Positions 32,070 through 45,556 of a stretch of 45,767 bases of DNA are shown piece after piece. The notes under the pieces are model-generated. The model ran no database searches, was not told the origin of the DNA, and saw only the letters and a list, made by a program, of their open reading frames with translations. This DNA is from Verrucomicrobiota bacterium (GTDB lineage: Bacteria; Verrucomicrobiota; Kiritimatiellia; RFP12; UBA1067), in contig JAEEZC010000003.1 in the NCBI GenBank assembly GCA_016288465.1, positions 1 through 45,767 on the forward strand, read 5' to 3'. Position 1 is the stretch's first letter. The number at the start of each line of letters is the position of its first letter. The translations under genes and the position numbers were made by a program.

Positions 32070-32099
32070 ACGCTTCACGGAAGCGCACGGAAGGAGCGT

Positions 32100-32801: not shown

Positions 32802-32808
32802 CCCCGCC

Positions 32809-33738
32809 ATGCTTCTTGCGGCCATAGTTGTGCTGGCGCTCACGCGCGCGGAGATCGTGCAGAGGATGCGCGCCCCGGTCGTCACTCAGTCGGACGGCAT
32901 GGTCAAGGTCTACGCCGACTGCCCCGAAGACATGCGCCGAGAATACCAGGGGCCCGTCGCCGGCTTTGTCGCCGACACGGTCGACACCCTGTACCGCAGC
33001 CTCGCGATGAAGCCGCTGCGCTTCGAGAGCCCTGGTCTGATCGTGCACGTCGGCGACGTAAGGACGAATGTGTCCGACGTCGTCTCAAGGGTCTCGACGA
33101 ACGGCGCCCGCGTAGTTACGCGCATCTACCTGAAGAGCCCCGGCTACGCCGACATCGGACGCCTCAGAGTCGAGGTCGCGCGCGCCTTCTACAGGTCCGT
33201 GAAAGGGCAGGAGATATCCCCCGCCGCCGCGTCCAAGGCTCTGCGAAGGGCGGATCCCCGGCTACGCATATCCGACGAGCGCGCGCGGCTGGAGTCGTGG
33301 CTGGCGACCGGCGGCTTTGGCGACGAGGACGAGAAGGCCGACGTGCAGAAGCGCGACGAGGAGGCGCTTGCGCTCATGCGCAAGATACTCGAGCCCGGCG
33401 TCCCGTCGCGCCGCGACGTCATAACGTTTGCGTCGAGACTCTTCATCTATCCGCGCACCTTCGACGAGAAGTTCGTCGGCGGCTCCGACTGCGTCTCGTT
33501 CAGGGATGCGGTGAAGCTCGCCCGCAAGGACCCGCGCGTCCGCTTTCTCGCGTTCTTCAAGGCGAACGAGCTTCCCGTCTGGGGAGGCGGACGCGGCGAC
33601 GGGCTGCGCGACGCGGCGGATGCGTACGTCGAGTTCCTGCGCGAGCTCGCGAAGTTCGAAAAGGGCGAAGACGAGCTTCTGCGCATGCTCGACGAGGCGG
33701 ACGAGAGACTCAAGGCGGTTTTCAGCAGCGTGAAGTAG
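32809..33738 (+). CDS. Hypothetical protein (309 aa), N-terminal hydrophobic anchor
   Basis: Coding-like composition, co-oriented 8 nt after the pseudopilin-like gene. No recognisable motif. Confidence 0.55.
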   Translation: MLLAAIVVLALTRAEIVQRMRAPVVTQSDGMVKVYADCPEDMRREYQGPVAGFVADTVDTLYRSLAMKPLRFESPGLIVHVGDVRTNVSDVVSRVSTNGARVVTRIYLKSPGYADIGRLRVEVARAFYRSVKGQEISPAAASKALRRADPRLRISDERARLESWLATGGFGDEDEKADVQKRDEEALALMRKILEPGVPSRRDVITFASRLFIYPRTFDEKFVGGSDCVSFRDAVKLARKDPRVRFLAFFKANELPVWGGGRGDGLRDAADAYVEFLRELAKFEKGEDELLRMLDEADERLKAVFSSVK

Positions 33739-33778
33739 CTTTTTCTGCGCGTAAGGCGCGGCAAGGAAGGAGATGGAC

Positions 33779-35146
33779 ATGGAAAAGAACAGAAAGACCA
33801 TAACCGACAACACAGTGGATCCTGATGTGCTCGCCTACACCGTCGGCGACGATCCGGTGCTGGATCTCGCTTTGGCGGTGTGGGACTGCATGGGCACGGC
33901 CGCGCATGTCACCATGCTCAGCGAGATGAAGGGCCTCAGGCGCCCTGTTGTCACGAAGGCGGAGGCCGCGAGGGTGCGCCGCGAGCTCGGCAGGATCGCC
34001 GCGCTGGCCGAGAAGGGCGGATTCGAGATCCGCGTCGACGACCAGGACGTCCACATGGCAGTCGAGCGCATGCTCACCGAAAAGCTCGGCGACCTCGGCA
34101 AGAAGATCCACACGGGCCGCTCCCGCAACGACCAGGTCGCCGTGGACGTAAGGCTTCACATGAAGGACGAGCTGCTGCGCGCCGAGGCCGAGACCGTGTC
34201 GCTGGCCGCCTCTCTCCGCAGGCTCGGCAAGCGCGGCGGAATGACGCCTCTCGTCGGCCGCACGCATCTCCAGCCCGCCATGCCGTCCACAGTCGAGATG
34301 TGGGCCACGGGCCATGCCGAGATGATCCTGGACCAGCTCGAGAACCTCGAGGCCGCGTATCGTCTTGCGGACCTGAATCCGCTGGGCTCCGCCGCAGGCT
34401 ACGGCGTGCCGCTGCCGCTCGACCGCCAGCGCACGACGAAGCTCCTCGGCTTCTCCCGCACCATCCACAACTGCTTCGGCGCGTCGATGGCGCGCGGCGA
34501 ATGCGAGGCGAGCCTGCTTTCGGCGCTTGCGCAGCTGATGGCCGTCGTCTCCAGGCTGGCCGAAGACCTCATACTCTTCTCCATGCCGGAGTTCGCCTAC
34601 TTCAGGCTGCCGCGCGAGTACTGCACAGGCTCGTCGATCATGCCGCAGAAGTTCAATCCGGACGTGCTGGAGCTCATGCGCTCCAAGGCCGCGCAGGTGC
34701 TCGGACTCCAGACCGCCGCGCTTTCGCTTCTTCACGCAATGCCGGGCGGCTACAACCGCGACCTTCAGGACTGCAAGTGGCTCTACATGAAGGGCCTGTC
34801 CATCACACGCCAGACGCTGCGCATCCTCGCCAAGGTCGTGGACGGAACGAAGATCGACGCCGATCGCTGCCGCGCGGCGTTTACGCCTGGAGTGTTCGCG
34901 ACGGACGTCGCCCTAAGGCTCGTCGCTGGCGGCACTCCCTGGCGCGACGCATACCACGACGTCAGAGACCACCTTGAACGTCTTTCGGACGAGGATCCGG
35001 ACGCGGCAGTTGCCGCGAAGACCCACGAAGGCACGACTGGCGGCATCGACCACGACGTGTACGAAAAGCGCGAGGTCGCCGCTATGAAGTCCGTCGAGAA
35101 GCGCCTTGCCGCGCTGGCCGCCGCAAAGAGCGCGCTCCTTAAGTAG
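33779..35146 (+). CDS. argH: Argininosuccinate lyase
   Basis: GRSRNDQVA and GSSIMPQKFNPD fumarate-lyase signatures. ATG 33779 has AAGGAG 6 nt upstream; ATG 33773 is the longer alternative. Confidence 0.95.
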   Translation: MEKNRKTITDNTVDPDVLAYTVGDDPVLDLALAVWDCMGTAAHVTMLSEMKGLRRPVVTKAEAARVRRELGRIAALAEKGGFEIRVDDQDVHMAVERMLTEKLGDLGKKIHTGRSRNDQVAVDVRLHMKDELLRAEAETVSLAASLRRLGKRGGMTPLVGRTHLQPAMPSTVEMWATGHAEMILDQLENLEAAYRLADLNPLGSAAGYGVPLPLDRQRTTKLLGFSRTIHNCFGASMARGECEASLLSALAQLMAVVSRLAEDLILFSMPEFAYFRLPREYCTGSSIMPQKFNPDVLELMRSKAAQVLGLQTAALSLLHAMPGGYNRDLQDCKWLYMKGLSITRQTLRILAKVVDGTKIDADRCRAAFTPGVFATDVALRLVAGGTPWRDAYHDVRDHLERLSDEDPDAAVAAKTHEGTTGGIDHDVYEKREVAAMKSVEKRLAALAAAKSALLK

Positions 35147-35228
35147 AAGGCCGCCCTGTGCCTTGCACCGTCCCTTGAGCGAGTAAAGGCTCAGAGGACG
35201 GGCGCGCAAAACGTGAAAAAGGGACTTC

Positions 35229-36416
35229 GTGCGCTCTCCAAAGACAATTCTGGTGCTGCTTTCGTCTGGAGGGGACTTCTCTATGCAGATGTTCTCCGGC
35301 GTCCAGAAGTACGCGCGCATGGCTGGGTGGCATCTCCAGACGGTCGAGTACGCCAAGGCGGACAAGGGAGGCTATATGCTGAACCGTTCGCCGTCCGGCC
35401 GCGACATCGGCGAACTGCTTAAGTTCTGGAATCCGGACGGATGCATCGTCGAGTGCGGCATGGCGCAAGAGCTTCTGCGCTCGGTGGACTTCAAGAAACG
35501 TCCTACGGTTTTCCTCGACCGGCATCCGCCGGCCGGAAAGTCCGACATGGTCTGCGTCTACAGCGACGCGGAATCCATCGCAAGGTACGCCGCGCGCGAA
35601 CTGCTGATGTCCAGTTATGGCGACTTCGCCTATGTGCCGTATACGGAAGACTTCGCCTGGAGCCGTGAGCGCGGCGAGGAGTTCTCGAAACTCGTCCGGA
35701 TGAACGGCAAGCGCATTCACGTCTTCAGGTATCCCGAGCGGCAAAGTCGTCCGGAAAGCATGGTGGAGATGTTTTCGCCGTGGTTGCAGTCTCTTCCCAA
35801 GCCCTGCGGCGTGTTTGCGGCCAACGACCAGGTCGCCGAGGGCGTTCTGCTCGCCTGTTCCTGCTGCGGAATCGCCGTTCCGGACGAAATGTCCGTCGTC
35901 GGCGTCGATGACGAGACATACATCTGCGAGAACTGCAAGCCGACGATATCGAGCGTCCAGCGCAATTTCGCCAACGCCGGCGCGATCGCGGGGGAGACGC
36001 TTGCGGAGCTGATGGACGCGAAGGACGGGCGCGTCGCCTCGCGCACATATCCGGCGGCAGGGCTTGTCCGCCGCGAGTCCTCGCGCATCATCAAGGGCAA
36101 AGACCGCCGTGTCGCGAAGGCGGTGGAGTACATCCGCTGCCACGCCTGCGACGGAATCGGTCCGCAGCAGGTCGTGGCGGAGATGGAAATCTCGCGCACG
36201 TTGGCCGACCTGAGCTTTCGCGCGGCACTCGGGCACACGATCCTCGACGAGATACACGCCGTCAGGCTGGATCACGTCAAGAAGCTTCTTGCGAAGGAAG
36301 TCGCGCCGTCCGTCATCGCCGGACAATGTGGCTATTCTTCCATTGTCGATCTCCGCAGGGTTTTCAAGGCTAGGCTCGGCATGACAATGGGCGAATACCT
36401 TGCGTCGCTGGCGTGA
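35229..36416 (+). CDS. Hybrid transcriptional regulator: LacI-type periplasmic-binding-protein sensor domain plus C-terminal AraC-type HTH (XylR-like architecture)
   Basis: PBP type-I hallmark VFAANDQVAEGVLLACSCCGIAVPDEMSVVGVDD. C-terminal AraC HTH (VEYIRCHA...ISRTLADLSFRAALGHTILDEI...AGQCGYSSIVDLRRVFKARLGMTMGEY). GTG start at 35229. Confidence 0.8.
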   Translation: MRSPKTILVLLSSGGDFSMQMFSGVQKYARMAGWHLQTVEYAKADKGGYMLNRSPSGRDIGELLKFWNPDGCIVECGMAQELLRSVDFKKRPTVFLDRHPPAGKSDMVCVYSDAESIARYAARELLMSSYGDFAYVPYTEDFAWSRERGEEFSKLVRMNGKRIHVFRYPERQSRPESMVEMFSPWLQSLPKPCGVFAANDQVAEGVLLACSCCGIAVPDEMSVVGVDDETYICENCKPTISSVQRNFANAGAIAGETLAELMDAKDGRVASRTYPAAGLVRRESSRIIKGKDRRVAKAVEYIRCHACDGIGPQQVVAEMEISRTLADLSFRAALGHTILDEIHAVRLDHVKKLLAKEVAPSVIAGQCGYSSIVDLRRVFKARLGMTMGEYLASLA

Positions 36417-36441
36417 AGGCTGCCTGTTTGGGATGTGATTC

Positions 36442-36489
36442 GATTTCTGTTTGATTTGTATCTTATTGTAGGTGTGTCTTTGCTATAAT
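36442..36489 (+). promoter_or_regulatory. Promoter A: 22-nt motif GATTTCTGTTTGATTTGTATCT, 20-nt spacer, TATAAT(ACC)
   Basis: Motif at 36442..36463 and TATAAT at 36484..36489. An identical motif with identical spacing occurs at 39720..39767. Lies 48 nt upstream of the glycine-rich protein ATG. Confidence 0.55.
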
Positions 36490-36536
36490 ACCCACAGACT
36501 GTTCGACAAGACAGGCAAAAGGGAGGAGACACGCGT

Positions 36537-39023
36537 ATGGCAATTCGCGAATATGCAACAAAGACCGCAGGCGTTCTTGCGGCTGTCGCGCTCGGGCTGT
36601 CGGCCCGTGCGGACTTCGTGCTCGAAGGCGACGCCAATTCCACGACGTCAGCCGTCGGGGCGGACGACGTGATAACGTTCACGCAGTCCGGCACGCTCAC
36701 GGTAACCGGCTCCGGCACAGTCAATATTCTGCTCGTTGGCGGCGGGGGCGGCGGCGGTTCGCACAAGGCCACCGACGGAAACATCAGCGGCGGCGGCGGT
36801 GGCGGCGGCGGTGTTGTCTATACCAATTCGTTTGCCGTTACGGCAGGGACATACAACATTGTGGTGGGTGCGGGTGGTGTCGGCGGCGGCAAGCCGGAGG
36901 ACAATACGAAAGTCGATGGCACGAACGGCGGCAATACGACCGCTTTCGGCTTCACGGCATACGGCGGCGGCGGTGGCGCGGCATGGGGCGGTCGCGTAGG
37001 CCTCAGCGGCGGTTCCGGCGGAGGGTCGACATCTGCTTGGGACAGTCGTGTTGAAGGCGGAACGGCGATTCACGCCCAAGACGGTAATATCGGCTATGAC
37101 GGAAAGACTGCAGTTCATGCATACACGCCCGGCGGCGGCGGCGGTGCGAGCAATTCGTCGACGGTGGACTCGGAACGCGCAGGGAAGGACGGCATTGCAA
37201 TCGACATAACCGGTGAATCCGTGTACTATGCCGGCGGCGGCGCTGGCGTCAGCTACACGCGCACGACGGCAGGTGGCCTTGGCGGCGGAGGAAACAAGGG
37301 CGAAAAGGGAACGGACGGCCTTGGCGGCGGCGGCGCAAGCGGCTGCGACGGAGGCAGCGGAATTGCAATCATCCGCTATACGCCGCAGTTTTCCGATTCA
37401 AGTTCCTTTTCCATATCCGGAGATGCCAATGCCGAAGAACTTACGCTCCACGACGGCAATGCGCTTGTGTTCCGTCAGAACGGCACGCTTACCGTAACAG
37501 GTGCCGGGATTGTGGACATCCTTGCCGTTGGCGGCGGTGGCGGCGGCGGAGCCACCAACTCCGCAGGAGAGGTTGCCACTGGCGGCGGCGCGGGCGGACT
37601 CGTCTACAGGCAGTCGGTCGCCGTACATGCGGGAACGTTCAGCATTGTTGTCGGAGCGGGCGGTGCGATTGGCGCGAACGGCGGCAACTCGTCCGTCCTC
37701 GGCATTACGGCTTACGGTGGTGGCGCCGGCGCCAAGAGTGGAGGGAATCATCCTGGCAATCCTGGCGGTTCCGGCGGTGGTGCGGCACATGCCTGGGGTG
37801 AGGATGCGAGTACGACAATGTCCGGAGGCGAGGCGGCCTACGCTTCATCAGACAACCATGGTTCTGCCGGCGGTTCGTCCTATTCGTACTATGGTTGCGG
37901 TGGCGGCGGCGGAGCAGGCTCATCGCCTATTTACCGAGACAAGGATGGCGAGACGATCGAAATTGGGGCGGAAAACGATAAAGGCTCTTATCCGCAATGG
38001 GGAGGCGACGGCTTGGCAATCGACATTACCGGGCGGTCGGTCTATTACGCCGGTGGCGGCGCGGCATTCCGGTCTGGCTATAGCAGGCCGAGCGGTGGCA
38101 AGGGCGGCGGAGGCGGCTACAACGAGGACGGAACCGACGGACTCGGCGGTGGCGGTTCGGGCAATCACAGGGGCGGAAGCGGTGTCGTGATCGTGCGTCT
38201 GCGCAGAAAAGCCTCTCCGATAGCGCACGAACCTGCGACCGGCGGCTCTGTAATCCGCGTCGGCGGGGGCTACCGTGCACACAGGTTCACGCAGAACGGA
38301 ACTCTTGTCGTCCCGAAGAACATTGTCGCCGACGTTCTGCTTGTTGGCGGCGGAGGAGGCGGCGGTTCGCACAAGGCAACCGACGGGAACATCAGCGGTG
38401 GCGGCGGCGGAGCCGGCGGTCTCGTTTACAAGACGAACATTGTCATTGCGGCAGGAACATACGATGTTGTGATCGGTGCGGGCGGTGTCGGCGGCGGTAA
38501 GCCGTCAGACAACACGAAGGTCGATGGCACGGACGGCGGCAATTCGACCGCATTCGGCTTCACGGCATACGGCGGTGGCGGTGGCGCGGCATGGGGCGGT
38601 CGCGTAGGTCACAGCGGCGGTTCCGGCGGCGGTTCGACATCTGTTTGGGATGAGAGCGTGGAAGGCGGCAAGGCGATTCACGCCGAAGACGGCAATATAG
38701 GCAATGATGGAATGCCTGCGACCCATGCATACGCGCCAGGAGGCGGCGGAGGTGCGAGCAATTCGACAACAGTGGATTCGACACGCGCTGGGAAGAACGG
38801 CATTGCAATCGACATAACCGGTGAATCCGTGTACTACGCCGGCGGCGGCGCGGGCGTCAGCTACACGCGCACGACGGCAGGCGGCCTTGGCGGAGGAGGA
38901 AACAAGGGCGAAAAGGGTACGGACGGCCTTGGTGGCGGCGGCGCAAGCGGTTGCGACGGCGGTTCTGGCGTCGTGATCATCCGCTATCGTTACGAGGCTG
39001 GCACTTTCATCTTCGTGAAATAA
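36537..39023 (+). CDS. Secreted glycine-rich repeat protein (three about 270-aa glycine-rich domains)
   Basis: Signal peptide (AGVLAAVALGLSARA). Three repeats each carry Q.GTL.V....V(N/D)(I/V)L.VGGGGGGG...GGG.GG(V/L)VY....V..GT(Y/F).(I/V)V(V/I)GAGG...YYAGGGA...GGSG(I/V).I(I/V)R. No catalytic motif recognised. Confidence 0.85.
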   Translation: MAIREYATKTAGVLAAVALGLSARADFVLEGDANSTTSAVGADDVITFTQSGTLTVTGSGTVNILLVGGGGGGGSHKATDGNISGGGGGGGGVVYTNSFAVTAGTYNIVVGAGGVGGGKPEDNTKVDGTNGGNTTAFGFTAYGGGGGAAWGGRVGLSGGSGGGSTSAWDSRVEGGTAIHAQDGNIGYDGKTAVHAYTPGGGGGASNSSTVDSERAGKDGIAIDITGESVYYAGGGAGVSYTRTTAGGLGGGGNKGEKGTDGLGGGGASGCDGGSGIAIIRYTPQFSDSSSFSISGDANAEELTLHDGNALVFRQNGTLTVTGAGIVDILAVGGGGGGGATNSAGEVATGGGAGGLVYRQSVAVHAGTFSIVVGAGGAIGANGGNSSVLGITAYGGGAGAKSGGNHPGNPGGSGGGAAHAWGEDASTTMSGGEAAYASSDNHGSAGGSSYSYYGCGGGGGAGSSPIYRDKDGETIEIGAENDKGSYPQWGGDGLAIDITGRSVYYAGGGAAFRSGYSRPSGGKGGGGGYNEDGTDGLGGGGSGNHRGGSGVVIVRLRRKASPIAHEPATGGSVIRVGGGYRAHRFTQNGTLVVPKNIVADVLLVGGGGGGGSHKATDGNISGGGGGAGGLVYKTNIVIAAGTYDVVIGAGGVGGGKPSDNTKVDGTDGGNSTAFGFTAYGGGGGAAWGGRVGHSGGSGGGSTSVWDESVEGGKAIHAEDGNIGNDGMPATHAYAPGGGGGASNSTTVDSTRAGKNGIAIDITGESVYYAGGGAGVSYTRTTAGGLGGGGNKGEKGTDGLGGGGASGCDGGSGVVIIRYRYEAGTFIFVK
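36729..37380. repeat. Intragenic direct repeat, copy 1 (domain 1 of the glycine-rich protein)
   Basis: Collinear without indels with 38337..38988 at a constant 1608-nt offset. Includes a 38-nt exact run (37191..37228 = 38799..38836). Confidence 0.85.
38337..38988. repeat. Intragenic direct repeat, copy 2 (domain 3 of the glycine-rich protein)
   Basis: See copy 1. By eye, roughly nine in ten positions are identical overall, and higher in the last about 190 nt. Confidence 0.85.
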
Positions 39024-39049
39024 AGAAGCCTGATACGAGCTTTGCGGTA

Positions 39050-39085
39050 TTCGCCGCCGTTGCCACACCCTGGCGCGGCGGCGAA
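39050..39085 (+). terminator. Candidate intrinsic terminator hairpin after the glycine-rich gene
   Basis: TTCGCCGCCG (39050..39059) pairs with CGGCGGCGAA (39076..39085) across a 16-nt loop. The following tract is only weakly T-rich. Confidence 0.4.
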
Positions 39086-39132
39086 CATTGAATTTCGTGT
39101 AGGATTGACGAAAATCAACATTGATTTTCGTG
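39085..39132. repeat. ACATTGAWTTTCGTG boxes: two direct copies 33 bp apart plus an inverted copy forming a perfect 11-bp inverted repeat
   Basis: Direct copies at 39085..39099 and 39118..39132. ACGAAAATCAA (39108..39118) and TTGATTTTCGT (39121..39131) are exact reverse complements separated by 2 nt. Confidence 0.6.
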
Positions 39133-39314
39133 ATGCCGATATGCGCCGCGGGGACAGGCCCCTCCGGTTACGGAATGTAAACCGAAGACCAACGCAGACG
39201 GGCCTTCGCTAACGCTCGGCCAAGAATACGCAAGCGTTAGTGTCGTCTCTGTCGATTCTTGTTCCTTCGTCTGCTTGACAGGGTTGCCTAAGGTGTCAAA
39301 ACGCCTTGCTCCTT

Positions 39315-39391
39315 CTATGTAAGCTTTGTCGGTCACCTATGTAAGCTCATTCCCCTAACTGTGCGAGCTTCTTTCTCTGCCTGTGTAAGCA
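39315..39391. repeat. Four direct CTRTGYRAGC(W) boxes with exact 22-bp phasing
   Basis: Boxes start at 39315 (ctatgtaagct), 39337 (ctatgtaagct), 39359 (ctgtgcgagct) and 39381 (ctgtgtaagca). Confidence 0.8.
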
Positions 39392-39395
39392 GTAG

Positions 39396-39476
39396 AAATG
39401 ACGCCATTTCACCCTCCAAATGACGTCATTTCACCCCTCAAATGACGTCATTTCAGGGTTCAAATGACGTCATTTC
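39396..39476. repeat. Four AAATGACGYCATTT(C) palindromic boxes with exact 22-bp phasing
   Basis: Boxes start at 39396 (one T>C deviation), 39418, 39440 and 39462. Three are perfect 14-bp palindromes. An inverted CTGTGT-type box closes the array at 39481..39490. Confidence 0.9.
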
Positions 39477-39719
39477 TACTGCGAACACAGATAGGAGAGA
39501 TTTTTTGCATAAGGAAAACAGCCGGAAAACACGGTTAGGAGAAGGGAAATGCGCAAGTAGGCGAAAATTCTCCTAAGTCCGTCGAAAGCTAACTCCTATC
39601 GCGAAGCCTGACAGTTCTGCGAGACGGGAATGCACCGATGCGTGAGCATCCACGGCTCGGAGTTTCAAGTTAGCCGCGTGTGCTCTCGCGGCTTCCTCCT
39701 GCTGTCTCAAACGTGACAA

Positions 39720-39767
39720 GATTTCTGTTTGATTTGTATCTCCTGGTTGGCGCGAGTTTGGTATAAT
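39720..39767 (+). promoter_or_regulatory. Promoter B: identical 22-nt motif GATTTCTGTTTGATTTGTATCT, 20-nt spacer, TATAAT(ACC)
   Basis: Motif at 39720..39741 and TGGTATAATACC with TATAAT at 39762..39767. Lies 30-36 nt upstream of the glycosidase start codons. Confidence 0.55.
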
Positions 39768-39796
39768 ACCATGCGCATGGATCAAGACAGGGATAT

Positions 39797-42409
39797 GTGT
39801 GCATGAAGTTGTGTTCGTCCATACTGCTTGCCGTAGCCGTCGCCGCGAACTGCCGTGCGGCCGCTTCGCCTTTCGGCATCTGCGAACACATCGCCGCGCC
39901 GTCGAGCTACATGCAGGGCGGAGAGTACACGAACCGTGTCGCGATGCTGAACTACTGCCGCGCCGCCGGAATCGGCATGGTCAGGACGGACTTCCGCTGG
40001 AGGCTTTGCTGGTCGGCCGTGAGCGGCGACTGGTCTTGGACGTATTTCGACAATGTGATTGCGGACGCCGAAAGGCGAGGCGTAGAAGTGCTTCCGATAC
40101 TCTTCGGCGACAACCCGGCAACCGGCGCGAAGGCGTACGACGACCTCGACGGATGGGCGGAATTCGTCCGGCAGGTCGTCACGCGCTACAAAGGGCGCAT
40201 CTCGGCGGTGGAGGTCTGGAACGAGTGGAACCATCCGTACTTCTGGACCGGCACAATTGCGCAGTACGCGCGGCTTCTGGAGCGGACCGCCGCGACCGTG
40301 CGGGCGGTCGATCCTTCCGTGCGCATCGTGATGGGCGGGGTCGCGGGCGCCGATCTCGCATCCATCGAGAAGCTTTGCAAGGCGGCTGCGCTCGACGCCT
40401 TCGACGCCGCGGCGTTCCATCCATACTGCTATCCCAATCCGCCGGACTACGATTCGAACTGGCTTGCCAGGCGCATAGAGGCCTTGCGGACTCTTCTCGA
40501 CGGGCAGGGGCGTTCGAGCGCGACGATATGGGTTACAGAAATCGGCTGGCCGACCGAAGGCGACGCGGCGGTAACCGAGGCTCTTCAGGCCGTATACATA
40601 ACGAACGCTGTGAACATCGCGGTTTCGGCCGGAGCGGAGAAGGTGTTTGCGTACGAACTGCGGGCGTGGGGCGTGCCGGAGGACGGAAGGGAAGGCTCGT
40701 TCGGCATAGTGAACCGCGACAACTCCGCGCGTCCCGGCCTTTACGCATACCGCGCATACATCCGCAGCCAGACGACCGGCGAAGCCGATCCTTTGGCCGA
40801 CGCCGTCTTCTTTGCAGGTTCGGATGGATGGGACGTACGTTCGTTTTCCGGCGGCGCGGGCTGGTCTGACCGCCGCGCTCCGCATCCCGACGCCGACTAC
40901 ATTGTCGACTTCGGCGATGCAGGAACGCTTTGGACGCCGTCTGCCAGCACGACGTTCGGCGGACGTTCCCTGACGCTCGGGCGCGTGAACGGCTTGGCCG
41001 GGAACGTGAGACAGATCGGCTGGAATGTTACCGCAACGGTCTCAGACCTTCGCCTTGGTAGAGGACGTTGGGAGGTTACTTCGGGAGCCGGCAACCATCT
41101 TGAAGTCCTCGCAGGCGCCGCAACAGTGCTTTCGCCCGCGTCGGATCCGTTCGTCTTCGCGCCCGCTGCACAGGACTCCGACCATGCCTTCACTCTGTCC
41201 GCGTCTCTTTCGGGTCCTGCGTCGTCGGCAATTGCCTTCACCGAAGGCGCGACGGAGACGGACACGCTCGACGCGACGGTTTCGGGCGACGCTTCCGCCT
41301 TTGTAGGACAGTTCATGGCGACAGGCCCGCGCGTCACGTTGCGTCTCGATTCCGCCGCGCTCGCCGGATGCGACGCCGCGCCGCGTTCGGACGGCGTGTC
41401 GCTTTCCGACGGTGCGACGCTTGCGCCGCTTTTCGACGGACAGTCTCTTTCCTCTTCTTCGCGCGGCTTTTTGTCCGACGGAACCGCAGTCATAGAAGTG
41501 CCGGACGGCTGGAGCTTCACGCTTTCCGTTCCGCTTTCGGGGTTCTTCTTGAAGCGCGGCGAAGGGACGCTCGTCATCGGAAGCGGAGTTTCAGGCGCAG
41601 GCGGAATCGTCGTCGAGGAAGGCTCCGTCGTCCCGGAGAACGCGAACGCGGCGTCGCGCATTCTCTCCTTTTCCGGCGGACGCGTTCTCGGGACTCTTGG
41701 CGCGGACTCCTTCGAAGGAGTTGCCGTCGGAAGCGCGACTGCCGCGCTTGACGGCTGGACTGGCGAAGGTTCGGTAGCGTCCGCCACGCCTGTGCCCGGC
41801 TCGGGCGTAGGCTGGCCGTTGCCCGGAGAGAATCACTCCAAAGCGCTGAAGCTGGAAGGCGCGCCGGTGACGAGAGACTATGCGGAGTCTGGCGTTCAGG
41901 AGCGTGCTTCGCTCGACATGCTCGTTCAGGTGCGGCGCTTCAGAGGCGACTGGCGCACAGTCTTCACTCCTGCGGAAGGCGAAGCCAGAATGTCCGTCGC
42001 GTTCGATTCGGACGGCGCGCCATGGCTTTGGCATGCGGACGCGGAAGGGCGTCCGGTCTGGACGCGGCTCAGGGCGAGGCGCGCGTTCGCGAACGGCGAC
42101 TGGGTTCGCGTTTCGCTCGACTTCGACTACGCCACGAATCCGCAGGGGCTTGCCTTCGTTCAGGTTCGGCTCGACGGATGGTGCGCCACGGCTCCCGAAG
42201 GATGGAAGAAGCCGTTCGAATCGGTGGGCGGAGGAACCTGGTTCCGTCTGCTTCCCGTGGATTCGGATGCGAAGTCGGTGTCGCGCGTCGGTTTTGAAGG
42301 AGCGTTGGCGCTCGACGATGTCGTTCTCGCTTCGCGCGACGACGCCGAGCCGTCTCCGTTGGGACGGGAGAAGGTTTTCGTTCCGGGATGCGCCATGTTC
42401 GTAAAGTAG
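39797..42409 (+). CDS. Secreted multidomain glycoside hydrolase: clan GH-A TIM-barrel (GH39/GH5-like), beta-strand-repeat (PATR-like) middle region, LamG/concanavalin-like C-terminal domain
   Basis: Signal peptide. Acid/base-type motif VEVWNEWNHP and nucleophile-type motif IWVTEIGWPT. Middle region is rich in G/S/A/T beta-repeat sequence. C-terminal jelly-roll-like segment. Start is ATG 39797 or 39803. Family assignment is from motif memory only. Confidence 0.85.
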   Translation: MCMKLCSSILLAVAVAANCRAAASPFGICEHIAAPSSYMQGGEYTNRVAMLNYCRAAGIGMVRTDFRWRLCWSAVSGDWSWTYFDNVIADAERRGVEVLPILFGDNPATGAKAYDDLDGWAEFVRQVVTRYKGRISAVEVWNEWNHPYFWTGTIAQYARLLERTAATVRAVDPSVRIVMGGVAGADLASIEKLCKAAALDAFDAAAFHPYCYPNPPDYDSNWLARRIEALRTLLDGQGRSSATIWVTEIGWPTEGDAAVTEALQAVYITNAVNIAVSAGAEKVFAYELRAWGVPEDGREGSFGIVNRDNSARPGLYAYRAYIRSQTTGEADPLADAVFFAGSDGWDVRSFSGGAGWSDRRAPHPDADYIVDFGDAGTLWTPSASTTFGGRSLTLGRVNGLAGNVRQIGWNVTATVSDLRLGRGRWEVTSGAGNHLEVLAGAATVLSPASDPFVFAPAAQDSDHAFTLSASLSGPASSAIAFTEGATETDTLDATVSGDASAFVGQFMATGPRVTLRLDSAALAGCDAAPRSDGVSLSDGATLAPLFDGQSLSSSSRGFLSDGTAVIEVPDGWSFTLSVPLSGFFLKRGEGTLVIGSGVSGAGGIVVEEGSVVPENANAASRILSFSGGRVLGTLGADSFEGVAVGSATAALDGWTGEGSVASATPVPGSGVGWPLPGENHSKALKLEGAPVTRDYAESGVQERASLDMLVQVRRFRGDWRTVFTPAEGEARMSVAFDSDGAPWLWHADAEGRPVWTRLRARRAFANGDWVRVSLDFDYATNPQGLAFVQVRLDGWCATAPEGWKKPFESVGGGTWFRLLPVDSDAKSVSRVGFEGALALDDVVLASRDDAEPSPLGREKVFVPGCAMFVK

Positions 42410-42423
42410 GTATCGGAGGAAAG

Positions 42424-44064
42424 ATGATGAGATGTTCGGTTCGCCAGATCGAGATTGTCGCTTTATTGGCTGCGGTTGTAGTCCAGTGCGCATTCGGGCA
42501 TGGAACTTCGCTCGGCACGTGCGCCCATGTGACGCGCGACGAGTTCGCGGAGAGGGATGCCGCCTACAAAATGATGCGCGAAGCGGGAATGGACTACGTC
42601 AGATGCGACTTCGACTGGCGCTGGTACCAGAATGGCAGGGACGCGCCGTTAGACTGGCGCATGTGCGACGCTGTCGTTGGCGACGCGGCGAAGCGCGGAA
42701 TAACCGTCCTGCCGATCCTCTGCAACCCGCCGGATTGGGCAAGGCCGGTGCAAGACCATGTCGCGGAATGGCGTTCGTTCGTGCGCGCGACGGCAACGCA
42801 CTTCAAGGGACGCATCCCGGTCTACGAAATCTGGAACGAGGAGAACCATCCCGGCTTCTGGAAGAATCCGAATGCCGAGGACTACGTGCCTGTCCTTAGG
42901 GCCGCATACGAGGAGATCAAGGCGGTCGATCCGTCTGCCAAGGTCGCCATCGGCGGCACTGCCGGGTTGGCGCTCGATTATCTTGAGGACGTGTACAAGG
43001 CGGGCGGCAAAGACTGCTTCGACATAATGAACGTCCATCCGTACAGCTGGCCGAATCCGCCGGACGCGCTTGCCGGGCAGATGGAGAGTCTGCGCAGGCT
43101 CATGGCGAAGTACGGCGACGCGGCGAAACCGGTCTGGATAACGGAGATTGGGTGGCCGACGCACAGGGCTTCCGTGCCGATGGCGGGCGTTCTGCTCGCA
43201 GGGCTGAAGATAGCCCGTCCGGAACGGAAAACCTGGCGCGTCGGCTACGTCGACGAGGCGGACAACATGGACATGACGCGGGATATCGCAGAGGGAATCC
43301 GCGAATGCCTTCCGCAAGGTTCGACGTGCAGGGCCTGTACGGCGGCGGAGCTTGTCGCGGCGCTTGGGACGAACGGACTCGACGCGGTCGTCTATCCGTA
43401 CACTGAGGCGTATCCGTTCGCGACGGTCAAGGCTGTGGCGCAGTTCGTGAAGCGCGGCGGAGTGCTGGCTGATTTCGGCGGCTCGCCGATGTACTATCCT
43501 GTTCTGGACGGAAAGCGCGTCCAGAAGGATGCCGAAGGAAAGGACCTTTTCGGCGCGACGGCGCCGAAGTTCCGCATCAGCGTGTATGGTCCGGGCAAGG
43601 AGAACGGGCTTAAATGGGGCGTAAAGACGTTCGCCACCGACGCTGCGACAAAGGCCGGCATGAAGTTCGAGCCGAACGGATTCGGCGCGTTCCGGTTCTT
43701 CAGGGCCGACCGTCTGCAGTCCGGCGACGAGATGGTTCCGCTTCTGTCGGTGAAGGACGTGAAAGGGGAGGACGCTGTCAGCGCATGCGTATACCGCTTC
43801 GGCAGCGACTTGAAAGGGGCTGTGATCGTCTCGGGCTGCACGGGCGCTGCGGGCGGAGTCGGCGAGCGGCAGCAGGCGGAATATCTCCAACATGCGCTGG
43901 CCGCGGCTGCGCAGACAGGCGTCGAGCGCGTGTTCGTCTACGAGTTTCGCGCGAACGAGAAGGATCCGCGCTACAGCGAAGACCATTTCGGCATCGTCCA
44001 TCGTGATTTCACCCCCAAGCCCGCGTATGAGGTGCTCAAAGCCGGCTCCGATGTCCAATTGTAA
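42424..44064 (+). CDS. Secreted clan GH-A glycoside hydrolase paralog with C-terminal GATase1-like (GH42 domain-B-like) module
   Basis: GGAGGA SD, then ATG 42424 and a signal peptide. YEIWNEENHP and VWITEIGWPT motifs, plus HPYSWPNPPD shared with the upstream paralog (HPYCYPNPPD). Confidence 0.85.
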   Translation: MMRCSVRQIEIVALLAAVVVQCAFGHGTSLGTCAHVTRDEFAERDAAYKMMREAGMDYVRCDFDWRWYQNGRDAPLDWRMCDAVVGDAAKRGITVLPILCNPPDWARPVQDHVAEWRSFVRATATHFKGRIPVYEIWNEENHPGFWKNPNAEDYVPVLRAAYEEIKAVDPSAKVAIGGTAGLALDYLEDVYKAGGKDCFDIMNVHPYSWPNPPDALAGQMESLRRLMAKYGDAAKPVWITEIGWPTHRASVPMAGVLLAGLKIARPERKTWRVGYVDEADNMDMTRDIAEGIRECLPQGSTCRACTAAELVAALGTNGLDAVVYPYTEAYPFATVKAVAQFVKRGGVLADFGGSPMYYPVLDGKRVQKDAEGKDLFGATAPKFRISVYGPGKENGLKWGVKTFATDAATKAGMKFEPNGFGAFRFFRADRLQSGDEMVPLLSVKDVKGEDAVSACVYRFGSDLKGAVIVSGCTGAAGGVGERQQAEYLQHALAAAAQTGVERVFVYEFRANEKDPRYSEDHFGIVHRDFTPKPAYEVLKAGSDVQL

Positions 44065-44251
44065 GGTAGTGGTCTGGCTCGCTTGTTATGTGCTTGCTTC
44101 TGCGATGAAGACGACTCGGGTCGGCCTAGTCGACGTACTCGTCGTAAACCCTCATCCTCCCGTCCGCAGCAGTTTGCTGTGGCTCAGCACTGTTTCCACT
44201 CTGTTTTTGAAGAGTGTTTGGAATGCACTATAGACGCAAAAGAACCTCCTG

Positions 44252-44260
44252 TGATATAAT
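44252..44260 (+). promoter_or_regulatory. Candidate extended -10 promoter (TGATATAAT)
   Basis: TGaTATAAT with TAGACG 17 nt upstream. Lies 32 nt upstream of the small ORF starting at 44292. Confidence 0.4.
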
Positions 44261-44291
44261 ATTTGCAACAAGAGGTTGAAAGGCGTCTCTT

Positions 44292-44408
44292 ATGGTGCTC
44301 GGAAAAATTCAGCATTTCATGACGCGTCGCTTTGACAGGGAAGGGACGAAACGCCATCATGTTCAGACGTTTCGTGCCATGCGCGCGCTTCCTCCGGACA
44401 TGCGATGA
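44292..44408 (+). CDS. Tiny basic ORF (38 aa), hypothetical
   Basis: MVLGKIQHFMTRRFDREGTKRHHVQTFRAMRALPPDMR. Its TGA overlaps the ATG of the next tiny ORF (ATGA). Below the ORF-track cutoff; read by hand. Confidence 0.25.
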   Translation: MVLGKIQHFMTRRFDREGTKRHHVQTFRAMRALPPDMR

Positions 44409-44530
44409 GCATAAATGGAAAGCAGTCGAACATCACGGACGAAGATCTCCTTGAAGTGGCGGCGCGATATTCAATAGGTTCGGCGGAGTCGATGCTGGCT
44501 GAAATCAAAAGCGTGTTCGCTTCCGGCTGA
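44405..44530 (+). CDS. Tiny acidic ORF (41 aa), hypothetical
   Basis: MSINGKQSNITDEDLLEVAARYSIGSAESMLAEIKSVFASG. Translationally coupled to the preceding ORF and ends 16 nt before the first repeat copy. Confidence 0.25.
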   Translation: MSINGKQSNITDEDLLEVAARYSIGSAESMLAEIKSVFASG

Positions 44531-44546
44531 ACTTTGGAAGAACGTC

Positions 44547-44604
44547 TGTCAGATTCGCCATTAGGCAGTTCCGGCTGAGAGAGCCCGGACAGGCCTGCGG
44601 GCGG
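44547..44604. repeat. Direct repeat copy 1 (TGTCAGATTC plus a 48-nt hairpin-containing unit)
   Basis: The 48-nt unit 44557..44604 (GCCATTAGGCAGTTCCGGCTGAGAGAGCCCGGACAGGCCTGCGGGCGG) is identical to 45509..45556. An imperfect hairpin pairs 44563..44574 with 44585..44596. Confidence 0.85.
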
Positions 44605-44694
44605 AAGTGCCGAGAGTGTCAGTGGCTGTGCCTGGCACAAAAACGCAGATTGCGAGATTATTTGCCGGCGCTATTGTCTGTTGGGCTTTGGCCG

Positions 44695-44724
44695 TTGACT
44701 TTTGGCGATGTTATTTGGTACAAT
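44695..44724 (+). promoter_or_regulatory. Promoter of the vapBC-type operon: TTGACT-18 nt-TACAAT with TGG extended -10
   Basis: TTGACT at 44695..44700 and TGGTACAAT with the hexamer at 44719..44724. Lies 44 nt upstream of the GTG start. Confidence 0.6.
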
Positions 44725-44730
44725 CATCGG

Positions 44731-44755
44731 TGACATCATTTTGCTTTCAAAATGA
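44731..44755. promoter_or_regulatory. Candidate antitoxin operator: TGACATCATTT-N8-AAATGA (inverted repeat TCATTTT/AAAATGA)
   Basis: Lies immediately downstream of the -10 box, around the predicted transcription start. Its arms are reverse complements of each other. Confidence 0.45.
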
Positions 44756-44767
44756 AAGGGTGTTCCT

Positions 44768-45049
44768 GTGGCTACAGTTACAGTTCGAGAGTTGTCTGCA
44801 CGCACGCTTGATGCGCTTAAGATGCGCGCAAGCGCAAACCACCGCAGTCTCAATGGCGAGATACTGTGCATTTTCGACTACGCGGTCTCCGGCTCGTCTG
44901 AGTTTGACTTCATACGTGAGAACCGGGCAAGGAGCCAACGCGATGCTCTTAAGGCCGTGTTCGGCAGATGGGACGACGACAGAAGCGAAGATGAGATTGT
45001 CAGGGAGGTTGAGAATTCCCGGACGAAGGGCCGGGAGGTCATCCTTTGA
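44768..45049 (+). CDS. vapB: Ribbon-helix-helix antitoxin (FitA/VapB-type)
   Basis: N-terminus TVRELSARTLDALKMRASANHRSLNGEILCIFDY matches the Arc/FitA RHH pattern. GTG start. Its stop overlaps the toxin start (TTGA). Confidence 0.85.
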   Translation: MATVTVRELSARTLDALKMRASANHRSLNGEILCIFDYAVSGSSEFDFIRENRARSQRDALKAVFGRWDDDRSEDEIVREVENSRTKGREVIL

Positions 45050-45438
45050 TATTGCTTGATACGAATGTCCTCATTGCCATACTTCGCGGCAATAAGAAGG
45101 TCGCTGAGCGCTTCTCGCGTAATCTTGGGGATATGGCGATTCCCGCAATGGTTGTAGGCGAACTGCATTTCGGTGCCGCTAAATCCAGGAATCCGGCGAA
45201 AAACCGGAGATTGGTACAGGCACTTCTGGGGGCGCTTCCTGTCATGCACACTACTGACGCGATAATGGAACTGTTCGGCGAGCATAAGGCGGTTTTGGCA
45301 AGCCGAGGAGAATCAGTCGAGGACGCGGATGTCCTCATTGCCGCAACGGCCCTTGCCTATGACGCGACGCTTGTTACAGGCAACATCCGCCATTTCTCGC
45401 GATTTGAGGGGTTGCGGATTGAAGACTGGAACAGTTGA
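45046..45438 (+). CDS. vapC: PIN-domain ribonuclease toxin (VapC/FitB-type)
   Basis: MILLDTNVLIAIL... with conserved acidic residues (D5, E39 region, D-rich SVEDADVLIAATA). 130 aa. TTG start. Confidence 0.9.
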   Translation: MILLDTNVLIAILRGNKKVAERFSRNLGDMAIPAMVVGELHFGAAKSRNPAKNRRLVQALLGALPVMHTTDAIMELFGEHKAVLASRGESVEDADVLIAATALAYDATLVTGNIRHFSRFEGLRIEDWNS

Positions 45439-45473
45439 TTCCAATTGGTGAGCCGCTTAAGCTGTAGCCCGCT

Positions 45474-45556
45474 TGTCAGATTCTCCGACAGCCGTCGTAT
45501 ATTCGTGTGCCATTAGGCAGTTCCGGCTGAGAGAGCCCGGACAGGCCTGCGGGCGG
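45474..45556. repeat. Direct repeat copy 2 (TGTCAGATTC, 25-nt insertion, identical 48-nt unit)
   Basis: TGTCAGATTC lies at 45474..45483. The 48-nt unit 45509..45556 is identical to 44557..44604, 952 bp downstream of copy 1. Confidence 0.85.

Follow-up and report, generated by a model that had tools for sequence, protein, structure and literature searches.

In the ParR/parC systems of R1, pB171 and pSK41, and in the omega repressor arrays of pSM19035, short helically phased repeats flank and overlap a promoter, and the small dimeric product of the downstream gene binds them cooperatively and represses its own promoter. In the origins of pSC101 and pPS10, direct 22-bp iterons come first and are succeeded by inverted repeats lying across the promoter of the initiator gene. 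In E. coli, the genes fis, ihfA/ihfB and hns, which encode abundant DNA-architectural proteins, are each preceded by the protein's own binding sites, overlapping the promoter. HU proteins prefer cruciform and distorted DNA. The HU-HIG proteins form, to our knowledge, a large and fast-evolving group in gut and rumen bacteria whose target and function are not known. Burroughs et al. (2017; PMC5499826), in the excerpted text of that paper, argued against a role of HU-HIG proteins as sequence-specific transcription factors, which they considered unlikely, and noted that the Ig domain fills the DNA cleft in structure 4FMR; no mention of an array upstream of HU-HIG genes was found in the same excerpt. 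Literature searches returned only eukaryotic CRE papers for ATGACGTCAT, among the matches listed, and none for DUF4469.

Here we describe an array of phased boxes in a 45,767-nucleotide stretch of DNA from a Verrucomicrobiota bacterium of the Kiritimatiellia (contig JAEEZC010000003.1), referred to below as the window. As in the plasmid systems, short helically phased repeats are arranged, in the relatives that carry a gene, around a promoter. We consider it rather probable that such arrays make up the cis-regulatory region of stand-alone HU-like/DUF4469 genes, likely controlled by their own products, and that the window holds an orphan copy.

The array and its chromosomal setting

Read directly, positions 39315-39490 of the window consist of eight in-phase 22-bp units, 176 bp exactly, made up of four CTRTGYRAGC boxes in direct orientation and four AAATGACGYCATTT palindromes, with an inverted box closing the array:

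39315..39324, plus strand: outer direct box A1, CTATGTAAGC
39337..39346, plus strand: outer direct box A2, CTATGTAAGC
39359..39368, plus strand: outer direct box A3, CTGTGCGAGC
39381..39390, plus strand: outer direct box A4, CTGTGTAAGC, marking the left edge of the dyad-symmetric part
39396..39409, no strand: inner box B1, AAATGACGCCATTT, one mismatch off a palindrome
39418..39431, no strand: inner box B2, perfect palindrome AAATGACGTCATTT
39440..39453, no strand: inner box B3, perfect palindrome AAATGACGTCATTT
39462..39475, no strand: inner box B4, perfect palindrome AAATGACGTCATTT
39481..39490, minus strand: closing box GCGAACACAG, inverted and A-like

The reverse complement of the closing box, CTGTGTTCGC, equals A4 at 8/10 positions. 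Both box types are confined to the array: AAATGACGTCATTT, with up to two mismatches, has four copies in the 45.8-kb window (shuffle expectation 0.09; 0/100 shuffles reach four), and CTRTGYRAGC likewise four (0.65 expected; 1/100 shuffles reach four). Tandem Repeats Finder reports a period of 22 with 3.7 copies and 88% matches, and the autocorrelation of the array peaks at a lag of 22 with 61% identity. The arms 39381-39431 and 39440-39490, which are 84% complementary, form an imperfect palindrome of ~110 bp. A preliminary description of this DNA had reported the eight contiguous units, both box types with the inverted last box, and the palindrome spanning 39381..39490, and on all of these points the present analysis agrees with it.

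The array lies in a gap of 773 bp (39024-39796) with a GC content of 0.41-0.54, against ~0.63 in the flanks. The small ORFs of this gap have no Pfam match, in keeping with its first description as a lower-GC gap without a credible ORF. Rfam assigned no family at gathering score across the whole window; at an E-value threshold, positions 38900-39900 and three related loci (L121, L125, L008) gave sub-threshold generic microRNA-hairpin matches only. A tRNA/tmRNA scan of the window found none, and a promoter scan of 38900-39900 called no promoter-like site. The surroundings are those of a housekeeping chromosome; the lyase protein of the window has no exact match on record.

An iteron-type replication origin, or the relic of one, was an early suggestion for such a layout. 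Its appeal is that four direct, 22-bp-phased boxes are followed by inverted boxes over the promoter of a downstream gene, as in pSC101 and pPS10. The setting is against it: no DnaA box lies near the array (the nearest DnaA-like 9-mer is more than 1.3 kb off), the cumulative GC skew runs monotonic and unbroken across it, and domain scans of the large ORFs of the window found no rep, par, transposase or integrase domain. This bears out the earlier remark that no rep, par, tns or integrase gene is adjacent, and the precomputed annotation of a syntenic relative (L150) likewise holds none. The protein encoded downstream of homologous arrays is HU-like/Ig-like instead of a winged-helix Rep, and searches of 72,556 plasmids, 50,697 phages and IMG/VR found no relative of it. 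The gene-plus-array units sit singly among housekeeping genes, for example ribosomal operons and dnaB, in most contexts with no co-travelling mobility genes (at one locus, L123, an ISL3 transposase and a DNA methylase are encoded a few kb downstream). Finally, the outer and inner boxes are unrelated in sequence, which is not so for iterons and Rep operators. We regard an origin as highly improbable.

At the DNA level, the conserved module described below matched nothing in plasmid and phage collections, and a scan of IMG/VR with the box pattern gave five matches, all unrelated. The module is shown by 0 of 109 box-pattern loci in 185,579 species genomes.

The upstream module and the fate of its gene

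The array is embedded in a conserved module of 318 bp, ~85% identical over 296-319 bp to L121:4080-4375 and to L122:1685-2001 (equivalent to L123:9694-10010). Apart from this module, the three loci share no nucleotide homology with the window. In L122, L123 and L125, the homologue of the module ends at the ribosome-binding site and ATG of a 234-aa gene, P0017. The features of the module and of the sequence beside it are as follows:

39247..39564, plus strand: conserved 318-bp module, homologous to the full upstream region (promoter-operator and 5' UTR) of HU-like/DUF4469 genes
39275..39299, no strand: small inverted repeat TTGACA-N13-TGTCAA, in the left part of the module
39437..39442, plus strand: degraded -35 position, CTCAAA as against TTGAAA/TTGAAT/TTGATT in gene-bearing members, placed by positional homology with L123:9883-9888
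39460..39465, plus strand: degraded -10 position, TCAAAT as against TGG-TATAAT in gene-bearing members
39491..39554, plus strand: remnant of the 5' untranslated region, with ribosome-binding-site-like AGGAGAAGGGAAA at 39537-39549, from alignment to L123 and L125
39555..39560, plus strand: gene-start remnant, with AAG for the relatives' ATG and TAG for codon 2
39565..39668, plus strand: segment S, including GAGCATCCACGGCTCGGAGTTTCAA at 39644-39668
39690, no strand: synteny breakpoint, from which the window matches the close relative L115 rightwards, L115 having a different gene to the left

In L123 and L125, the stretch equivalent to 39491..39554 runs up to the ATG of the gene. In the window, homology to the HU-like/DUF4469 gene stops at 39564, and tblastn found no homologue of the 234-aa protein there or in L150. 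On this sequence evidence the window copy has been orphaned: nothing of the gene body survives, mutations have struck the start codon as well as both promoter hexamers, and the boxes are left. The missing adjacent gene, which had puzzled the preliminary description, is explained by the loss of the cognate gene in the window.

Segment S stands after the module in the window and before it in L121 and L125. A model of circular permutation or of a tandem unit was considered, since segment S and a GGGGACAGGCCCC motif each change sides of the module between the window and L121; it was dropped because the second match covers only 24 nt (E = 0.003), too little to support it.

Among four copies of the module, variable columns number 3/40 in the direct boxes and 3/56 in the palindromes, as against 28/65 in the spacers; between the window and L121, the second orphan, 3/96 box positions differ as against 40/200 elsewhere (p = 3.6e-5). 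At the small inverted repeat in the left part of the module, both sides have changed, L123 reading TTGGCA...TGCCAA. Conservation in relatives, which had been put forward as a test of the array, is found. Synteny of the array extends to L150, a relative whose nucleotide sequence is 95.2% identical over 13.3 kb, and between the window and L150 the divergence of the boxes (3/96) equals that of the remaining positions (21/683), in a comparison of low power. Since the boxes enjoy no extra conservation against L150, the orphan is probably a relic, and the sequence of the window copy most likely represents one in decay; it might nonetheless remain a binding site for a cognate protein whose gene lies elsewhere in the genome.

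The array is absent from the same site in L115. The idea that it marks the edge of an inserted island was rejected: L150 is collinear through the array, so there was no recent insertion in the lineage of the window, and in L115 the whole upstream context differs. A related proposal holds that the 22-bp units are transposase sites at a Tn7/Mu-like transposon end, or belong to a MITE/REP-type repeat. It is true that the module, at 85% identity, stands out from surroundings that are otherwise unrelated, that a close relative lacks it at this site, and that many family genes lie on short contigs. However, neither a transposase nor a second end is present and the boxes occur nowhere else in 45.8 kb, which disposes of the Tn7/Mu-type sites considered earlier. 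The borders of the unit are the upstream region and start codon of a gene, not terminal inverted repeats, and conservation is concentrated in the boxes around the promoter. The exact box pair is present in only five stretches among 241 million metagenome records. With a single copy in the window as well, this speaks against the generic dispersed REP/MITE-like repeat that had been named as the refuting case. The transposon or MITE/REP proposal is, in our judgement, scarcely credible.

For annotation, the orphan reading would mean that a striking iteron-like repeat can be the fossil promoter-operator of a deleted gene, and that such orphan arrays can persist syntenically between strains.

The shared array plan and its candidate readers

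One plan, in a 22-bp register, is shared by seven distinct family members with 47-100% protein identity (L123, L127, L133, L137, L140, L141 and L147) and by the two orphans: four outer direct boxes and four inner TGnCGnCA boxes, the latter with A/T flanks around the core. In 8/9 of these upstream regions the top autocorrelation lag is 22. In most members, inner boxes 2 and 4 enclose a TTGAAA-17-TATAAT promoter, and promoter scans of L123, L133 and L137 placed TTGAAA/TTGAAT/TTGATT-17-TATAAT with a TG extension at the same position. The full form of this embedded promoter, of the sigma-70 type, is TTGAAA-17 nt-TGG-TATAAT. In gene-bearing copies, B3 occupies the spacer between -35 and -10, and B4 lies just past the -10, over the expected transcription start. 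Several details vary: B1 is degenerate in every copy of the P0017 group, box orientation patterns differ between members, and an inverted match of A4 and its linker is significant in the P0017 group and L141, not in four other members.

The dyad symmetry of the array has been maintained during divergence. It is held by two-sided changes in 21/45 position pairs, and pairing extends to 80% of cells, against 34-44% in slid controls, with 0/500 shuffles matching. Each family member that was tested has inverted symmetry (z = -5 to -14). These data could be taken to mean that the functional form is a DNA cruciform, or a long hairpin in read-through RNA, acting as a supercoiling sensor or as a terminator/insulator between the Gly-rich gene and the glycosidase operon; the HU-like protein might recognise the cruciform. 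The ~110-bp palindrome, folded as single-stranded DNA, is very stable (-42 kcal/mol, z = -13), and in the window and L121 the spacers beside box 3 have turned complementary. Across the family, spacer positions are mostly unpaired, and the differing box orientations cannot all form one hairpin. With a transcription start inside box 4, the mRNA would not include the left arm, and no T-run follows the hairpin stem in the window. A structural role would also leave unexplained why the phasing is strictly 22 bp and why four of the boxes are direct and non-palindromic, and we hold it to be quite improbable.

To judge from its conserved boxes, its variable spacers and the maintained dyad symmetry, we take the intact array for a cooperative promoter-operator, probably an autoregulatory one. 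In the mechanism that we propose, eight sites 22 bp (two turns) apart would lie on one face of the helix, with, in some members, an inverted outer-type box closing the array. On these boxes a protein complex with dyad symmetry would assemble cooperatively and control the promoter. Most simply, this complex would be built from the HU-like product of the gene itself, as with autoregulated nucleoid proteins or ParR/parC.

The protein in question has ~235 residues, with an HU-like N-terminal domain and an Ig-like DUF4469 domain, and is encoded downstream of the homologous arrays on Kiritimatiellia contigs; its family comprises 359 clusters. Its Pfam match to DUF4469 (E = 2e-5, 24.7 bits) is above the cut-off of 22.6, and that to HU-HIG (PF18291; E = 1e-3, 19.6 bits) is below the cut-off of 26.2. 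Among solved structures it is closest to 4FMR, that of the Bacteroides HU-HIG protein BVU_2165, which the family profile matched in the PDB at E = 2.6e-4, classical HU matching weakly. A Foldseek search with the AlphaFold model gave four chains of 4FMR as the sole significant matches (E = 4.5e-8 to 3.9e-7), at a TM of only 0.37 and with the arm region of the model at low confidence. Aligned by hhalign, the Kiritimatiellia family and the Bacteroidales HU-HIG proteins reach E = 0.18, which is not significant. From gene adjacency alone, we infer that the HU-like product is the candidate binder of the boxes.

Similar arrays occur in a second phylum. In Bacteroidales, 22-bp ATATGACGTCATAT arrays lie 80-206 bp upstream of a conserved HU-HIG gene of ~150 aa (Pfam E = 2.6e-17). 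The gene is intact at five loci; at L011 and L012 the array is followed by gene fragments, and at L017 by a conserved leader motif. By their sequence context, these arrays would fit the idea that HU-HIG domains go with boxes of the TGACGTCA type. The link to the Bacteroidales proteins came through Pfam and not through phmmer, which, with the family protein searched against ORFs beside the 109 ATGACGTCAT loci, retrieved its own copy (L063) only.

The main competitor to the HU-like product as reader is a host transcription factor, or a pair of them, unrelated to that product, such as a dimeric factor for TGACGTCA-type palindromes. Such factors would control the HU-like genes and other targets, with the HU-like protein itself not binding. 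Several observations lean this way. The TGnCGnCA core is near-constant across the family, and is found in Bacteroidales too, so that evidence from co-change of box and protein is weak and a conserved host factor could read the boxes. Pairs of ATGACGTCAT 22 bp apart also serve other genes, at divergent promoters of Actinobacteria and at a ribbon-helix-helix antitoxin of Phycisphaerales, and many Prevotella arrays have no adjoining HU-HIG gene. The DNA cleft of 4FMR, in the excerpted account of that structure, appears occluded. Against a host factor, the phased array and an HU-HIG-type gene recur together in two phyla in unrelated chromosomal contexts, and no regulator gene co-travels with the unit. 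The inner-box variant is uniform within a promoter, all four boxes being TGACGTCA, TGCCGCCA or TGACGCCA, as would be expected if the specificity of the reader drifts from locus to locus. We rate the host-factor explanation as possible, if on balance rather unlikely. The outer and inner boxes, unrelated in sequence, diverge at different rates, which suggests two readers.

Other binders were considered. A VapB-like antitoxin, proposed earlier, was set aside, nothing tying VapB to the array. The hybrid AraC regulator named with it found no support either; it more plausibly reads a motif common to the promoters of the Gly-rich and glycosidase genes. A centromere of the ParB/parS or ParR/parC kind was rejected: neither the window nor the neighbourhood of the family genes contains a partition NTPase gene, a centromere-binding protein gene or any ParA, ParM, ParB or ParR domain. 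Of the cooperative operator or centromere array originally envisaged, the operator part stands, through homology to a promoter-embedded phased array; the ribbon-helix-helix or ParB protein does not, its place being taken by an HU-like/Ig-like one.

Under autoregulation by the HU-like product, the enigmatic HU-HIG family would gain a candidate DNA target, a phased two-box array in promoters of two phyla, and we propose that an HU-HIG-type protein may bind TGnCGnCA boxes and regulate its own gene. Were such binding real, the published prediction of no sequence specificity would be overturned. In a broader form of the proposal, HU-HIG-type proteins of both phyla would be site-specific array binders, assembling a dyad complex on the eight boxes of their own promoters, and gene-less arrays would be working landing pads. 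Arrays of the latter kind, in the window and dispersed in Prevotella, would then let the protein organise or silence neighbouring DNA, and the long palindromes might be read as cruciforms. We think this broader form unlikely.

Comparison with known systems

The array would share with ParR/parC and the omega system a dependence on the direct or inverted orientation of its repeats. Those proteins are ribbon-helix-helix dimers, whereas an HU-like and Ig-like protein, whose binding is only predicted, is found here; their iterons are of 7-11 bp and of one type, whereas the period here is 22 bp with two unrelated box types. Unlike ParR/parC, the units have no partition ATPase or actin-like partner and are chromosomal stand-alone genes.

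The likeness to pSC101, pPS10 and R6K gamma lies in ~22-bp direct repeats followed by inverted repeats over the adjacent promoter, pPS10 having four contiguous 22-bp units as here. Unlike these origins, the locus has no Rep-fold initiator, DnaA box, AT-rich unwinding element or plasmid, phage or ICE context, and its direct and inverted boxes differ in sequence. The met-boxes of MetJ (AGACGTCT tandem arrays) are a GACGTC-centred palindrome repeated two to five times and read cooperatively. The likeness is in sequence only: met-boxes are contiguous 8-bp repeats read by a ribbon-helix-helix repressor, whereas the boxes here are 14 bp long and 22 bp apart.

With autoregulated nucleoid-associated proteins, the protein here shares a predicted HU/IHF-family fold. 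The promoters of fis, ihf and hns carry irregular, degenerate sites, in contrast to the eight strictly phased, near-identical boxes with dyad symmetry found here, and the protein here has an extra Ig-like domain. In the HU-HIG clade of Bacteroidetes (PF18291, 4FMR), as far as the excerpted text of PMC5499826 describes it, an HU-like N-terminus is fused to an Ig-like DUF4469 domain, as is predicted for the family described here, and the genes likewise stand alone, with no operon partners and in many diverged copies. The present family differs from that clade in belonging to Kiritimatiellia and in its sub-threshold HU-HIG match; the two have in common the 22-bp ATGACGTCAT arrays upstream of their genes.

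The phased array and its chromosomal setting

Sequence reading of 38700-40100 bore out the preliminary description of eight in-phase 22-bp units, with four direct boxes followed by palindromes and a closing box. Because every start is spaced by 22 bp, 39315-39490 comprises exactly eight units, and three of the palindromes are perfect:

Outer direct boxes A1 and A2, starts 39315 and 39337: CTATGTAAGC
Outer direct box A3, start 39359: CTGTGCGAGC
Outer direct box A4, start 39381: CTGTGTAAGC
Inner box B1, start 39396: AAATGACGCCATTT
Inner boxes B2, B3 and B4, starts 39418, 39440 and 39462: perfect palindromes AAATGACGTCATTT
Closing box, at the array end at 39490: GCGAACACAG

Such a pattern greatly exceeds chance expectation: within the window, the palindrome (≤2 mismatches) has four occurrences (0.09 expected) and the direct box also has four (0.65 expected), all of them in the array. 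Tandem Repeats Finder returned period 22 at the array, and the long imperfect palindrome described at the outset was recovered by a repeat finder as inverted arms of 51 nt, 84% complementary. The gap around it (39024-39796) is lower in GC, as first described; none of its ORFs matches a family, and searches found neither a tRNA gene nor an Rfam family at gathering score. Directly after the terminator-like hairpin of the Gly-rich gene (39050-39085), 39084-39132 holds a direct repeat, AACATTGA(A/T)TTTCGTG, 33 bp apart, accompanied by a perfect 11-nt inverted repeat, ACGAAAATCAA/TTGATTTTCGT; this repeat is also present in L150, a close relative, and lies outside the conserved module.

The window is ordinary chromosome. 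Its housekeeping genes (valyl-tRNA synthetase, OMP decarboxylase, MurG, an RNase J-like enzyme, phosphofructokinase and galactokinase) are followed by:

Lyase gene, before the hybrid regulator
35229-36416: periplasmic-binding/AraC hybrid regulator
36537-39023: Gly_rich_2 protein, then the gap
39803-42409 and 42388-44064: two glycosidase-like genes, after the gap
44769-45047 and 45046-45438: VapB-like and PIN/VapC genes of a VapBC-like pair

Source names of homologous proteins indicate Kiritimatiellia. The cumulative GC skew climbs steadily through the array, and a search found no DnaA-like 9-mer near it. The Gly_rich_2 and glycosidase-operon promoters (36442-36520 and 39710-39790) have in common GATTTCTGTTTGATTTGTATCT, then TTTG(G/C)TATAATACC, then CAAGACAGG, which suggests co-regulation, perhaps by the adjacent hybrid regulator. 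A C-terminal ...(I/M)FVK, perhaps a sorting tag, is common to the Gly_rich_2 protein (39000-39023) and the 870-aa glycosidase-like protein (42386-42409). The VapBC-like pair is bracketed by a 47-nt direct repeat, CCATTAGGCAGTTCCGGCTGAGAGAGCCCGGACAGGCCTGCGGGCGG, at 44558-44604 and 45511-45557; the L150 alignment jumps from window 44231 to 45603, and with this ~1.4-kb segment absent there, the toxin-antitoxin cassette looks like a strain-variable insertion.

Promoter region of an HU-like/DUF4469 gene family

Two ATGACGTCAT boxes spaced by 10-14 nt were found at 109 loci when 185,579 species genomes were scanned. These loci are of several kinds with unrelated uses: arrays in Bacteroidales, divergent promoters in Actinobacteria, an operator of a toxin-antitoxin system, and REP-like repeats. 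The window's module was absent from all of them. In nine actinobacterial loci (L028, L031, L082, L088, L092, L103, L106-L108), two such boxes lie 22 bp apart between divergent genes, overlapping a start codon (ATGACGTCATGG...), a conserved operator-like layout with no relation to the window. Metagenome contigs, scanned more strictly, yielded five stretches, three of which contain the window's whole structure (L121, L122 and L119, the last on the same contig as L063). By BLAST and alignment, window 39247-39564 is ~85% identical to L121:4080-4375 and L122:1685-2001, with no further nucleotide similarity between the window and these loci, even across the 20-kb locus L123.

In L122/L123, L119/L124, L125 and L126, this module ends in the ribosome-binding site and ATG of the gene for a 234-aa protein, P0017. 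Pfam DUF4469 (Ig-like fold) scores above cut-off in P0017, and HU-HIG and classical HU both score below theirs. A profile of 32 homologs matches PDB 4FMR, the Ig-domain-containing HU-HIG protein of Bacteroides vulgatus, at E = 2.6e-4 across residues 23-215; classical HU proteins match it marginally. The AlphaFold model is confident for the helices and Ig domain and low-confidence in the arm region, and Foldseek matches it significantly only to the four chains of 4FMR (E = 4.5e-8 to 3.9e-7). The family comprises 217 clusters at 90% identity, or 359 at 50% identity (E <= 1e-3) among 1.84 billion proteins, with no relatives found in plasmids, phages or IMG/VR. Its genes stand alone in diverse chromosomal contexts, near ribosomal protein operons, dnaB or glycosidase genes, in agreement with the family paper, which describes HU-HIG genes as without operon partners (PMC5499826).

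Two explanations proposed initially for the phasing fail here. An iteron replication origin is rejected on the wrong protein fold, the lack of a DnaA box or unwinding element, the housekeeping context and the lack of plasmid or phage relatives. A transposon end (Tn7/Mu type) or MITE is likewise rejected: there is no transposase, the second end is missing, copies are very few, and the boundaries coincide with a gene's upstream region.

Seven distinct members (P0017, P0057, P0030, P0091, P0101, P0116 and P0113; 47-100% identity) were compared, and all seven have a non-coding upstream region of 260-520 bp. Each has four outer direct boxes (for example GRTGYAAGC, TTGGTGTAAGC, TGCTYACGGTGAAAG or CCTATGGRCA) followed by four inner boxes with a TGnCGnCA core and A/T flanks (TGACGTCA, TGCCGCCA or TGACGCCA). 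The strongest autocorrelation lag is 22 in 8/9 upstream regions, window and L121 counted. Inner boxes 3 and 4 (in L141, inner boxes 2 and 3 instead) are separated by a TGG-TATAAT element (TGG-TAAAAT in L147), with a -35 hexamer 17 nt upstream of it in three members. Promoter scans made a call at this position in L123, L133 and L137, and none in L127, where the -10 occurs on its own. The spacer of the promoter is therefore filled by inner box 3, and transcription would be expected to start within the stretch covered by inner box 4.

Across four P0017-type modules, variable columns number 3/40 in direct boxes, 3/56 in palindromes and 28/65 in spacers, with flanks ~30% variable; when boxes are tested against the rest in pairs of copies, p ranges from 6e-6 to 0.016. 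The module is this gene family's promoter region, and selection acts on its boxes, which are in phase with the helix.

The dyad A4-B1-B2 / B3-B4-A' (A', the closing box) is retained in nine sequences with two-sided changes in 21/45 position pairs; pairing holds in 80% of cells versus 34-44% with slid partners, a level reached by 0/500 shuffles. The P0017 group and L141 have a significant closing box; in four other members it falls short of significance. Because spacer positions are mostly unpaired and box orientations vary between members, the symmetry is read as that of a protein complex rather than a required hairpin. A hairpin or cruciform as the functional form would also leave the direct boxes unexplained. 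HU-type proteins favour cruciforms, so a mixed model may apply.

The orphan copy in the window

The window copy is an orphan. Its homology to gene-bearing copies stops at 39564, AAG stands at the family's ATG position with TAG as the next codon, and CTCAAA and TCAAAT occupy the -35 and -10 positions. No homolog of the family protein was found in the window by tblastn, and no promoter by a scan of 38900-39900. A second orphan, L121, sits beside trpE and trpGD; it too lacks the -10, and its deletion end-points differ from the window's. In both (window 39432-39461; L121 4265-4294), the spacers flanking inner box 3 are now complementary (CCCT...AGGG), which lengthens the palindrome precisely at the -10 position of intact copies; a template-switch mutation (quasipalindrome correction) could account for the loss of the promoter.

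Over window 26537-39861, L150 aligns collinearly (95.2% identity) and has the same orphan, with changes in A4, B2 and the closing box. Third codon positions differ by ~7% in the two flanking genes checked. Boxes diverge at 3/96 positions and the rest of the gap at 21/683, equal divergence that, in this low-power test, reveals no recent constraint. In a second close relative, L115, identity to the window is 96% to the right of 39690, and the gene on the left is a different one. The module recurs in Kiritimatiellia contigs and the orphan is syntenic in L150, synteny failing in L115 left of 39690. The orphan is therefore inherited and is not the generic dispersed REP/MITE-like repeat initially considered, which the five stretches of the stricter scan also disfavour. 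The window feature is probably a fossil of a promoter-operator system, a relic being somewhat likelier than a working secondary binding site.

Segment S (39565-39668, containing GAGCATYYACGGCTCGGAGTTTCAA) lies right of the module in the window and L150 and left of it in L121 (3970-4062) and L125 (about 20-55). L150 has an additional ~1.1-kb segment (13326-14429) between the glycosidase promoter and gene; its 377-aa ORF shares the glycosidase's N-terminus, marking the segment as a local duplication or rearrangement.

Candidate binder and relation to known systems

The boxes are putative targets of a cooperative complex with two-fold symmetry that would bind them on one DNA face and control the promoter. 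Whether the gene's own HU-like product would form it, giving self-regulation, stands at about an even chance, the main rival being an unrelated host regulator. For self-regulation, the gene and array travel alone as a unit, and all four inner boxes of any one promoter have the same variant. In the Bacteroidales genera Porphyromonas, Prevotella and Hoylesella, too, a conserved HU-HIG gene of ~150 aa (Pfam E = 2.6e-17) is preceded, at a distance of 80-206 bp, by a 22-bp array of ATATGACGTCATAT, and the neighbouring genes differ among genera; the array precedes gene fragments in L011 and L012 and a leader motif in L017. Against it, the inner-box core is nearly constant across the family, outer and inner boxes resemble two different sites, and profile comparison found no significant similarity between the Kiritimatiellia and Bacteroidales protein groups. 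Burroughs et al. also argued that HU-HIG proteins are not sequence-specific, and noted that the DNA cleft of 4FMR is filled by the Ig domain (PMC5499826).

The Bacteroidales arrays comprise 2-7 copies of ATATGACGTCATAT at 22-bp period (L008, L044, L049, L077, L089, also L011, L012, L017, and further loci among L002-L102), with Tannerella as a fourth carrier genus. Their highly conserved HU-HIG gene has a conserved leader hairpin, CTGCCAA...CCTCGCTCTGACGG...TTGGCAG, and several extra arrays occur at other loci in Prevotella falsenii, Prevotella sp. SUG325 and Hoylesella pleuritidis.

Of the cooperative operator or centromere array initially suggested, the promoter-embedded phased array upstream of a gene family stands; the associated protein is HU-like/Ig-like, not RHH or ParB. 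Three features appear new: the layout of eight units and two box types with dyad symmetry, its association with HU-HIG/DUF4469-type genes and its recurrence in two phyla. None of them turned up in literature searches or in the consulted passages of the family paper (PMC5499826). The general type of system is known: in ParR/parC, omega, Rep/iteron and fis, an array of phased operators overlies a promoter that the gene's own product regulates.
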